64,000 bases of DNA, from assembly GCF_003334815.1 (NCBI RefSeq), contig NZ_QOWO01000004.1. One strand, written 5' to 3'. The DNA is from Escherichia coli (GTDB lineage: Bacteria; Pseudomonadota; Gammaproteobacteria; Enterobacterales; Enterobacteriaceae). The notes below the pieces were generated by a model. It was not told the origin of the DNA. It ran no database searches and worked only from the letters and a program-made list of their open reading frames with translations. How positions within the stretch are numbered: the first letter of the stretch is position 1; every line of letters begins with the position of its first letter. The position numbers and the translations under genes are program-made. Below are positions 61,557 through 62,320 of this stretch, one piece after another.

Positions 61557-61739
61557 ATCCAAATAACGCTTAGTTATTAATAATTAAGAGTAACCGCCGC
61601 CATTAAAATAGTGGGCACTGACGAGCACTCGTTGTGCTTTCTTTGTTTACCATCTCATACTTATCCTCCTGAACATGTTCATGTGCCAAAATATCTTCTA
61701 ATACTTTCGTGACGCTATCCGGTTTATGACATACACTGA

Positions 61740-61758
61740 TGTAAGATTTTTACTTACA
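61740..61758. promoter_or_regulatory. Inverted repeat TGTAAG-N7-CTTACA upstream of the parD-like gene (putative operator)
   Basis: Perfect 6-bp inverted repeat 13 bp upstream of the MARTMTV start; ParD-type antitoxins autoregulate via palindromic operators. Confidence 0.4.
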
Positions 61759-61770
61759 GGCGGGCGTAAA

Positions 61771-62022
61771 ATGGCCAGAACGATGACGGTTGATCTCGGC
61801 GATGAGTTGCGTGAATTTATCGAGTCCTTAATTGAATCCGGCGACTATCGCACCCAAAGCGAAGTGATCCGTGAGTCACTGCGATTACTTCGAGAAAAGC
61901 AAGCAGAGTCTCGCCTGCAAGCGTTACGTGACATGCTCGCAGAAGGGTTGAGTAGTGGTGAAGCTCAGCCGTGGGAAAAGGACGCGTTCTTACGGAAGGT
62001 GAAAGCAGGGATAAGGAAATAA
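61771..62022 (+). CDS. parD: ParD-family (RHH/CopG-type) antitoxin
   Basis: 83 aa from MARTMTVDLGDELREFIESLIESGDYRTQSEVIRESLRLLRE; ORF track gives an alternative upstream ATG at 61726. RHH antitoxin signature; stop overlaps downstream GTG start. Confidence 0.8.
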   Translation: MARTMTVDLGDELREFIESLIESGDYRTQSEVIRESLRLLREKQAESRLQALRDMLAEGLSSGEAQPWEKDAFLRKVKAGIRK

Positions 62023-62023
62023 T

Positions 62024-62320
62024 GTGCGTATTATTAAACTCATGCCAAAAGCCAATGAGGATTTAGAAGGCATCTGGTATTACAGCTATCACCATTTCGG
62101 CGAACCACAAGCCGACAGATATGTGGAACATCTTTCAGACGTTCTCCAGATTCTGAGTAACAATAATATAGGTACGCCCAGACCTGAATTAGGCGAAGGT
62201 ATTTTTGTTCTTCCTTTTGAACGCCACGTCATTTATTTCCTGCAATCACCAGGGGAAATTATCGTCATTCGTATCCTTAACCAAAACCAGGACGCCACCA
62301 GACATTTACACTGGAGCTAA
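62024..62320 (+). CDS. parE: ParE-family (RelE/ParE superfamily) toxin
   Basis: 98 aa from GTG at 62024 (alternative ATG at 62042); EDLEGIWYYS N-terminal region and C-terminal IIVIRILNQNQD resemble ParE toxins; translationally coupled to parD. Confidence 0.8.
   Translation: MRIIKLMPKANEDLEGIWYYSYHHFGEPQADRYVEHLSDVLQILSNNNIGTPRPELGEGIFVLPFERHVIYFLQSPGEIIVIRILNQNQDATRHLHWS

Follow-up and report, generated by a model that had tools for sequence, protein, structure and literature searches.

Two small genes lie side by side on the plus strand between yegP and trhP (yegQ) in the window, the whole 64-kb stretch of E. coli DNA analysed. The first, parD (61771-62022), encodes an 83-aa ribbon-helix-helix antitoxin of the PF03693/TIGR02606 type, the second, parE (62024-62320), a 98-aa toxin of the ParE class translated from a GTG start. 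A first-pass annotation, made from the sequence alone, had called both ORFs with these sizes and the GTG start, and both are present. It had also described the parD stop as overlapping the parE start, which is incorrect, as one base separates the TAA at 62020-62022 from the GTG at 62024-62026 (TAA-T-GTG), and the ATG hidden within TAATG (62022-62024) lies in a different frame from parE. A putative ribosome-binding site for parE, AAGGA, can be read at 62013-62017. The parD frame is open from an earlier ATG (61726-62022, plus strand), and encodes 98 aa from this first ATG and 83 aa from the in-frame ATG at 61771. RefSeq, in which the two products are named ParD family antitoxin and RelE/ParE family toxin, starts parD at 61726. 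This is probably not the true start, and the RefSeq model would be 15 codons too long at its 5' end; because of the early start, intact parD genes are flagged as frameshifted in some lineages, as in O55:H7 DEC5E. A small antitoxin gene upstream of a small toxin gene, co-oriented, spaced by 1 nt and preceded by an inverted repeat, is the layout of type II toxin-antitoxin operons.

The assignment of the two proteins to the ParD and ParE families, proposed in the first-pass annotation, is borne out by profile searches. ParD matches Pfam ParD_antitoxin PF03693 (E 4.7e-19, residues 1-78 aligning to positions 1-76 of the 81-position model), and along its full length TIGR02606 (E 2.3e-25, 88.4 bits against a cutoff of 46.2). 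A Pfam RHH_1 match spans residues 6-42 (E 0.0034), and PrpA (PDB 7ycs) aligns over residues 2-78 with 47 of 77 residues identical (61%, E 1.9e-27). [quoted passage not shown] All the ParD homologues examined begin with MARTMTV. ParE matches Pfam ParE_toxin PF05016 (E 2e-13), and no NCBIfam profile at E <= 0.01. The PDB sequences matched at E < 0.01 are all ParE toxins, among which PrpT (2.3e-12), M. tuberculosis ParE1 (5.8e-8), Caulobacter ParE1 (2.3e-7) and V. cholerae ParE2 (6.8e-7). ParE homologues share the N-terminus M(R/K)x(I/V)KL(T/M)PKA. The AlphaFold model (pLDDT 91.4) features a long hairpin formed by two N-terminal helices (8-25 and 27-46), described as a hallmark of ParE proteins, and a three-stranded sheet. 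When the model was compared to the PDB by Foldseek, ranks 1-22 were all taken by ParE-class structures, with query-normalised TM-scores of 0.73-0.88; RelE, YoeB and YafQ occur from rank 23 on, with scores of 0.51-0.67, the first RelE being found at rank 23 (0.64). The modelled fold is thus of the ParE type, nearer to ParE than to RelE, YoeB or YafQ.

The perfect inverted repeat TGTAAG-ATTTTTA-CTTACA (TGTAAG-N7-CTTACA), reported by the first-pass annotation just upstream of the genes, resides at 61740-61758, 12 nt 5' of the parD ATG at 61771 and over the expected transcription start. It is the sole match in the window, even allowing one mismatch; 0.08 matches are expected by chance, and 8 of 100 shuffles contained at least one. 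In the 21 homologous loci compared, GTAAGA-N5-7-(T)CTTAC is found about 12-14 nt before the parD ATG, with one arm changed to ATAAGA in a single locus. The 21 loci are located on chromosomes, plasmids and a prophage, and farther upstream their sequences are for the most part unrelated. Retention of the palindrome next to otherwise differing upstream sequences strengthens its reading as a putative ParD operator, to which ParD plausibly binds. A putative parDE promoter (61709-61737, plus strand) is made of a -35 box GTGACG (61709-61714), a 17-nt spacer and a -10 box TACACT (61732-61737). Its hexamers match the consensus at 8 of 12 positions, and for this reason the promoter is missing from the output of the promoter scan. 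Pseudocitrobacter has kept both TCGTGACGC and TACACT, and most homologous loci have a -10-like box, TAyACT, ahead of the palindrome.

The gene pair and its putative operator and promoter are carried by an accessory insert of 776 bp (61556-62331, plus strand), delimited by alignment to the K-12 derivative C600. The insert has the yegP terminator on its left and the trhP -10 box on its right, and stands in place of the 15 nt CCAGAGCCCCCCACA of K-12-type genomes. In C600 yegP and yegQ are adjacent, spaced by 146 bp devoid of parDE genes, as the first-pass annotation had stated for K-12. The right junction (...GATT|GCGCTACAAT) is identical in E. coli, E. whittamii and Pseudocitrobacter, and the insert ends feature neither transposon-like terminal repeats nor a clear target duplication, apart from a shared TTTA. 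The left arm of the insert (61556-61706) is non-coding. No Rfam family matched the 61000-62600 interval at a permissive threshold, and no PADLOC defence model was matched. A 23-nt stretch of the left arm (61597-61619) resembles the trhP leader at 62344-62365, with a local alignment score reached in 1 of 1,000 shuffles. The left arm also carries an AGGAGG ribosome-binding site on the minus strand (61664-61669), which heads a short ORF. A small minus-strand gene at this place was considered and rejected, as the reading frame varies between E. coli alleles and E. whittamii, and the mini-ORF is taken to be a remnant.

The parDE pair is found in 1,844 of 5,426 complete E. coli genomes (34%). The islet used as query matched 1,846 of these genomes, always in a single chromosomal copy, and at least 80% of it is kept in 1,844 of the 1,846. 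The pair is absent in K-12, O157:H7 and ST131, and is not a core locus of the species. The notion of a strain-specific islet, put forward in the first-pass annotation, holds in that the insert is accessory and variably present, but the element is too widespread to be called strain-specific. Pairs at the same site reside also in E. whittamii and in some Pseudocitrobacter. Three alleles of the yegP-trhP gap occur in E. coli, the empty site, the parDE islet, and an island of 4 genes. The latter overwrote the parDE core, and retains bases 61552-61613, corresponding to the shared TTTA and the start of the left arm. The view that K-12 derives from deletion of the islet, first suspected from a loose likeness of the 15-nt filler to the parE 3' end, was rejected. 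The empty site is the ancestral form, since the empty sites of Citrobacter, Klebsiella and Pseudocitrobacter share with K-12 the same TTTACY-17-TACAAT geometry. The parDE islet is an old and common polymorphism. Disrupted copies are rare; as an example, parE is interrupted by an IS1 in strain 2196. Strain BS-04, inspected as a possible carrier of a partial islet remnant, was discarded, the region being homopolymer-rich assembly noise. Homologues of parDE reside on plasmids, a prophage and other chromosomes. A related, decayed copy adjoins RepB on an E. coli IncF plasmid, and a search of a phage collection returned a single partial match. An accessory and mobile distribution of genes kept under selection is that of a type II toxin-antitoxin operon.

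The best match among solved structures is, for both proteins, the PrpT/PrpA system of the Pseudoalteromonas rubra plasmid pMBL6842 (PDB 7YCS/7YCU; ParE/PF03693). PrpTA genes have a similar order and size (86 and 98 aa), and the two toxins share 31 of 93 residues (33%). The DNA-reading beta-strand RTMTVD is identical in PrpA and ParD, and the motif footprinted by PrpA, TTTG(T/A)AAT, has a TGTAA core in common with the half-site described here. There are also differences. prpA and prpT overlap by 8 bases, whereas parD and parE are spaced by one; PrpA protects the -35 box and some of the -10 box in footprints, whereas the repeat is located just 3' of the -10 box in the E. coli locus; PrpTA is plasmid-borne and sets copy number through the origin iterons, whereas the E. 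coli pair is chromosomal. The latter lacks the genomic setting of a plasmid copy-number controller, since its neighbours are yegP and trhP, and neither a replication gene nor an array of iterons lies nearby. PrpT is toxic to E. coli cells, which become filamentous, and PrpA counteracts PrpT, represses its own promoter and footprints on the TGTAA-containing motif (PMC7848731, PMC9731233). The target of PrpT was not determined biochemically, and the word gyrase is absent from PMC7848731. Caulobacter ParDE1 (3KXE), V. cholerae ParDE2 (7R5A) and M. tuberculosis ParDE1 (8C24) match both proteins significantly along the whole sequence, and are, as the E. coli pair, type II operons located on a chromosome, with a ribbon-helix-helix antitoxin. 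Their toxins, which the literature regards as gyrase inhibitors, have query-normalised TM-scores of 0.82-0.84 to ParE, though identity is only 26-31%. Regulation of V. cholerae parDE2 senses the toxin:antitoxin ratio. Other systems are similar in the toxin only. RK2 ParDE, ParDE-I of IncI/IncF plasmids and PaaR-PaaA-ParE of E. coli O157:H7 prophages all have toxins with a ParE fold, and O157 ParE2 figures among the structural neighbours (query-normalised TM-score 0.77); their antitoxins belong, according to published descriptions and PDB hits, to other families, PF09386 in RK2, COG3905 in ParDE-I, and PaaA plus a separate regulator in O157. ParDE-I was at one time regarded as the closest system, and was set aside, its antitoxin being described as COG3905.

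Altogether, the locus is very probably a type II toxin-antitoxin operon, intact and chromosomal, that pairs a ParE toxin with a ParD of the PF03693 kind. How it would work can be modelled on PrpT/PrpA, Caulobacter ParDE1, V. cholerae ParDE2 and M. tuberculosis ParDE1. By analogy, ParD dimers would bind the TGTAAG and CTTACA arms through the N-terminal beta-strand RTMTVD, and bound ParD would repress the promoter, the -10 box of which is spaced from the repeat by 2 nt, on its 5' side. ParD would wrap its C-terminal half around ParE and so neutralise the toxin. If ParD is lost by degradation and no new ParD is made, unbound ParE would be expected to poison DNA gyrase, and gyrase poisoning may lead to SOS induction, filamentation and growth arrest. 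Candidate roles on the chromosome are those of a selfish addiction element, of an anti-addiction device against related plasmid ParE toxins, or of a component of the stress response. The first-pass annotation had put forward stabilisation of the adjacent region, and phage or persistence phenotypes, as what the pair may serve.

The module could have been domesticated, ParE being poorly toxic and the locus maintained through regulation by ParD or by linkage, with no working addiction. Certain chromosomal ParE toxins, as P. aeruginosa ParE1, are indeed weakly toxic or non-toxic. In V. cholerae ParE2 a key residue is Trp25, and its change to Phe reduces toxicity without abolishing it; in E. coli ParE the equivalent residue, on visual inspection of an alignment to M. 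tuberculosis ParE1, appears to be Phe25. Within E. coli, the pair has diverged at synonymous sites as much as the flanking core genes, and behaves therefore as a long-resident chromosomal locus. Disrupted copies such as that of strain 2196 occur, if rarely. Yet both genes are under purifying selection. In a set which includes comparisons at saturating synonymous divergence, pN/pS is 0-0.09 for parD and, for parE, 0.09-0.27 in 4 of 5 comparisons, the exception being the value of 0.53 versus strain XH992, which is based on six substitutions in all; constraint on parE is evident even in the distant comparisons (0.16-0.27). The conserved C-terminal D..RHL motif is intact, nearly all the matching genomes keep most of the islet, and the occurrence of homologues on plasmids and a prophage, typical settings of addiction modules, also argues against attenuation, which is overall unlikely.

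Alternatively, the main role of the locus may be to interfere with related mobile elements, ParD neutralising plasmid ParE toxins or binding plasmid operators or origins in the manner of PrpA, which controls copy number by binding to origin iterons. Salmonella plasmid-type contigs encode a ParD with 91.5% identity to that of the E. coli pair, whereas the ParE proteins encoded there are only 66-67% identical, and the operator core recurs at these Salmonella loci. The decayed copy next to RepB on the E. coli IncF plasmid fits the same scheme. This interpretation, which has a slim chance of being right, derives wholly from similarity; it concerns biological role, and is compatible with the mechanism outlined above. 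It is most improbable that the toxin is a ribosome-dependent mRNA endonuclease of the RelE type and no gyrase poison, because, although PF05016 and the RefSeq name span both activities and RelE, YoeB and YafQ figure among the structural neighbours of the model, significant PDB sequence matches and the 22 nearest structures are all ParE, the model has the long helical hairpin, and the partner is a PF03693 ParD, a member of the second commonest antitoxin family associated with ParE.

As a discovery, the operon carries little weight. Family, fold, operator logic and presence in E. coli genomes were already known, and RefSeq annotates both proteins. A literature search by protein accession, yegP/yegQ and E. 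coli ParDE retrieved no study of the locus and no experiment on the pair. Since K-12 and the laboratory strains related to it naturally lack parDE, they offer hosts in which the functioning of the pair may be assayed. The insertion may also bear on the downstream gene. The trhP -10 box TACAAT (62336-62341, plus strand) is located directly right of the insert. In every empty site inspected, in K-12 as in Citrobacter, Klebsiella and Pseudocitrobacter, it is found 17 nt after TTTACY, and the insert removes the usual -35 box (TTTACC). No trhP promoter of the TTTACY-17 nt-TACAAT type was detected by a promoter scan of the window, and no terminator in the interval between parE and trhP. Loss of the -35 box and lack of an intervening terminator raise the possibility, though a doubtful one, that in carrier strains transcription of trhP, encoding a tRNA uridine-34 hydroxylase, partly depends on read-through from the promoter controlled by ParD/ParE. 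If true, tRNA modification would be tied to the state of a toxin-antitoxin system. Without its usual -35 box, trhP, a gene for tRNA modification, could be expressed differently in a third of the strains of E. coli.

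Two small plus-strand ORFs separate yegP (61185-61517) from yegQ, or trhP (62423-63784), at the right end of the window, downstream of baeS (58872-60275) and baeR (60272-60994). The first, parD, spans 61726-62022 and encodes 98 aa if read from its first ATG, and the second, parE, spans 62024-62320, starts with GTG and encodes 98 aa. The two genes had been described as overlapping, which is slightly wrong, since a single base separates the parD stop (TAA, 62020-62022) from the parE GTG (62024). The RefSeq parD model (WP_001307279.1) is the 98-aa form. Yet, it appears to begin 15 codons too early (61726-61770), and four observations favor the in-frame ATG at 61771, from which an 83-aa protein (N-terminus MARTMTVDLG) is encoded up to 62022. 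Family models align from the very first residue of the 83-aa protein. In 19 of 21 homologous loci the gene starts at the equivalent of 61771, with the sequence ATGGC(N)(A/C)G(N)AC encoding MART; the remaining two, both metagenome-assembled contigs, carry ATC at this position, and the Pseudocitrobacter ParD is 83 aa long according to gene callers. In the O55:H7 DEC5E and E166 alleles (comparison loci L004, 731-1028, and L007, 870-1167) an extra C between the two ATGs disrupts the long ORF, hence the RefSeq flag "frameshifted", but parD is intact, as the 83-aa proteins are 100% and 98.8% identical to that of the window, and are preceded by a better ribosome-binding site (AGGAG). Finally, the upstream ATG (61726) precedes both a conserved -10-like box and a palindrome. 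Two features support GTG as the start codon of parE: homologues conserve the N-terminus M(R/K)x(I/V)KL(T/M)PKA..DLE, and an AAGGA site lies upstream, its end 6 nt from the GTG.

The assignment of the pair to the ParD and ParE families, made in the first-pass annotation, is borne out by profile and structural comparisons. The 83-aa ParD matches Pfam ParD_antitoxin PF03693 (4.7e-19, residues 1-78 on model positions 1-76 of 81) and NCBIfam TIGR02606 ("type II toxin-antitoxin system ParD family antitoxin"; 88.4 bits, curated cutoff 46.2). The 98-aa ParE matches Pfam ParE_toxin PF05016 (2e-13, residues 4-90), and has no match in NCBIfam. The best solved match for both proteins is 7YCS (ParD 1.9e-27, toxin 2.3e-12), the PrpA/PrpT pair of the Pseudoalteromonas rubra plasmid pMBL6842; 47 of 77 residues are identical between PrpA and ParD, and 31 of 93 between PrpT and ParE. 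M. tuberculosis ParDE1, Caulobacter ParDE1 and V. cholerae ParDE2 come next. ParE was modelled confidently by AlphaFold (pLDDT 91.4, pTM 0.82) as a strand, two long helices (8-25 and 27-46) and a three-stranded sheet. Compared with the PDB by Foldseek, the model has ParE-class toxins as its 22 closest neighbours (query-normalised TM-scores 0.73-0.88), and RelE, YoeB and YafQ rank 23rd or lower (0.51-0.67). No PADLOC defence model matched.

A perfect inverted repeat, TGTAAG-ATTTTTA-CTTACA (61740-61758), lies upstream of parD, as had been noticed, and is the sole match with at most one mismatch in the 64 kb, against a chance expectation of 0.08. The 130 nt 5' of parD were compared among the 21 loci, which are E. 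coli alleles, E. whittamii, Pseudocitrobacter, plasmid-type contigs of Salmonella and Citrobacter, a Yersinia prophage, and loci from Buttiauxella, Cedecea, Pantoea, Enterobacter and Rahnella. Outside Escherichia only two upstream elements are common to all, GTAAGA-N5-7-(T)CTTAC, ending 12-14 nt 5' of the parD ATG, and, a few nt farther upstream, a TAyACT -10-like box; in one locus (L021) the left arm is degenerate (ATAAGA). Such conservation outlines a phylogenetic footprint. A putative parDE promoter (-35 GTGACG, 61709-61714; 17-nt spacer; -10 TACACT, 61732-61737) would place the transcription start within the palindrome. Its hexamers match the consensus at just 8 of 12 positions, and it was therefore not reported by the consensus scan.

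What was computed here is the structure of the genes, their family and fold, the purifying selection on them, the conservation of the operator, the boundaries of the insert and its frequency in the population; the activities of the pair are proposed by analogy with characterised relatives. ParD would repress its own operon at the palindrome, its C-terminal half would neutralise ParE, and free ParE would poison gyrase, though the target of PrpT itself has not been biochemically determined. Binding of ParD to the palindrome is inferred from PrpA/PrpT, for which repression, EMSA and footprinting have been demonstrated experimentally (PMC7848731, PMC9731233). The DNA-reading beta-strand of the ribbon-helix-helix, RTMTVD, is identical in ParD and PrpA, and the PrpA footprint motif TTTG(T/A)AAT shares TGTAA with the half-site of the window (PMC7848731, PMC9731233). 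By eye, via an alignment with M. tuberculosis ParE1, the residue of ParE corresponding to the key Trp25 of V. cholerae ParE2 is apparently Phe; in ParE2, the Trp25-to-Phe substitution reduces toxicity without abolishing it, and certain chromosomal ParE toxins are only mildly toxic.

Relative to C600, 776 bp (61556-62331) stand in place of the 15 nt CCAGAGCCCCCCACA. The empty sites examined, from K-12, Citrobacter, Klebsiella and Pseudocitrobacter, have one and the same trhP promoter layout, a -35 TTTACY, a 17-nt spacer with a GCGC end, and a -10 TACAAT; in K-12 this promoter is found by the promoter scan. The left junction falls inside the trhP -35 box (TTTA|CC), and occupied sites in E. coli, E. 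whittamii and Pseudocitrobacter have an identical right junction, the parE stop, 11 nt, and then GCGCTACAAT. The common layout and the shared junction indicate that the empty site is ancestral, and that the pair is a genuine insertion, the islet that had been supposed. The view of K-12 as a deletion derivative was dropped, since the promoter layout of the empty sites and the junctions speak for insertion. Neither terminal repeats nor mobility genes were found at the flanks of the insert. In its left arm, 23 nt (61597-61619) resemble the trhP leader, which lies beyond the right end of the insert (62344-62365), with a local alignment score reached in 1 of 1,000 shuffles, and may be a decayed duplicate generated by the insertion event. 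On the minus strand of the left arm (61620-61690) a strong AGGAGG ribosome-binding site (61664-61669) precedes a short ORF, 11-16 aa in the window and 18-26 aa in the O55:H7 allele; given that the frame varies between alleles, this is probably all that remains of a divergent gene since lost.

When 780 bp (61552-62331) were searched against 5,426 complete E. coli genomes, the islet was matched in 1,846, always chromosomal and in single copy, with at least 80% of its length kept in 1,844; the match is at least 99% identical in 1,515 of them and 95-99% identical in another 330. Carriers include O104:H4 2011C-3493, O103:H2, O121:H19 and O55:H7 DEC5E. The islet is absent from O157:H7, ST131 and, as anticipated in the first-pass annotation, K-12/C600. 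In strain 2196 an IS1 is inserted in parE; in BS-04 (L005, 1466-2065) homopolymer-rich sequence replaces the pair, and looks like an assembly error. The order yegP-parD-parE-trhP is also found in Escherichia whittamii (ParD 98.8%, ParE 94.9% identical). Some Pseudocitrobacter genomes, in which yegP is missing, carry the pair (ParD 91.6%, ParE 78.6%) with baeR on one side and trhP on the other; in further genomes of this genus, and in Citrobacter amalonaticus and Klebsiella pneumoniae, the site upstream of trhP lacks it. Presence and absence are polymorphic in Pseudocitrobacter, as in E. coli, directly 5' of the trhP -10 box (L009/L010 versus L069/L070); occupied sites have the right junction of E. 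coli, and empty sites REP-like repeats instead. More distant homologues reside in plasmid-type contigs of Salmonella, where an integrase and a Rep3 replication gene adjoin them, in a prophage of Yersinia mollaretii, and in the chromosomes of Buttiauxella and other genera. Plasmid records matching at 60-80% identity number 881, and among those listed the match covers 61731-62313, which takes in the two genes together with the operator and the -10 box. The one E. coli plasmid copy read, in the IncF plasmid CP088377.1 (L066, 3001-3589; 68.6% nt identity), adjoins integrase and RepB genes and is a pseudogene, with a frameshifted parD and two in-frame stops in parE; 15 other E. coli plasmid matches are listed at the same identity.

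Within E. coli, pS is equal in parD and parE (0.03-0.07) and in the flanking yegP and trhP (0.04-0.08), which indicates that the insert has shared the divergence of the DNA around it and did not arrive recently. Judged from substitution patterns, both ParD and ParE are maintained by selection. pN/pS is 0-0.09 for parD, and 0.09-0.27 for parE in four of five comparisons, the fifth, against XH992, giving 0.53 on six substitutions in all; the set takes in comparisons near synonymous saturation, Pseudocitrobacter (0.06 for parD, 0.16 for parE) and the Salmonella plasmid (0.09 and 0.27).

A third allele of the yegP-trhP gap, found in 298 of the 5,426 genomes, among which the type strain ATCC 11775 and NU14, is a four-gene island encoding PcfJ-domain, DUF1266, DUF4034 and hypothetical proteins (L006, 3373-6468; L008, 19696-25022). 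In AH19D088, the one genome examined in detail, the island retains 61552-61613 (62 bp, made up of the common TTTA and the 58 nt with which the insert begins) and the terminal 29 nt of the insert, CATTTACACTGGAGCTAA plus the 11-nt spacer. With both ends kept, the island, as read in this genome, must have overwritten the core of an earlier parDE islet.

Rfam gave no match in 61000-62600. Elsewhere in the window it matched two JUMPstart elements (9090-9128 and 33630-33668), naRNA4 (14477-14547), an algC element (19018-19067), the type I antitoxin SIB RNA (49600-49748) and, directly after trhP, CyaR (63867-63952); no tRNA genes were found in the window.

In carriers the region leading up to the trhP -10 box (62305-62341) lacks the conserved TTTACY -35 box, lost with the insertion, and the best replacement, TGGAGC, matches at 3 of 6 positions with 18-nt spacing. 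No promoter was detected by the scan at the insert-trhP junction, nor any terminator-like site between parE and trhP, where a 9-bp hairpin (62373-62393) is not followed by a U-run. Hence trhP may be reached in carrier strains by read-through from the parDE promoter.

In a 2025 review, the chromosomal type II systems listed for K-12 do not include ParDE, in agreement with the first-pass annotation, and ParDE in E. coli is treated as plasmid-borne. Searches of the literature by protein accession, yegP/yegQ and E. coli ParDE retrieved no study of the yegP-trhP locus. In all of the carrier genomes listed, the products already bear the RefSeq names ParD family antitoxin and RelE/ParE family toxin. 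The initial observation and its interpretation were essentially right, and the pair, an element of a well-understood kind and previously annotated, is counted as already known. What is gained is the corrected start of parD, the three alleles of the yegP-trhP gap, and the displaced -35 box of trhP.
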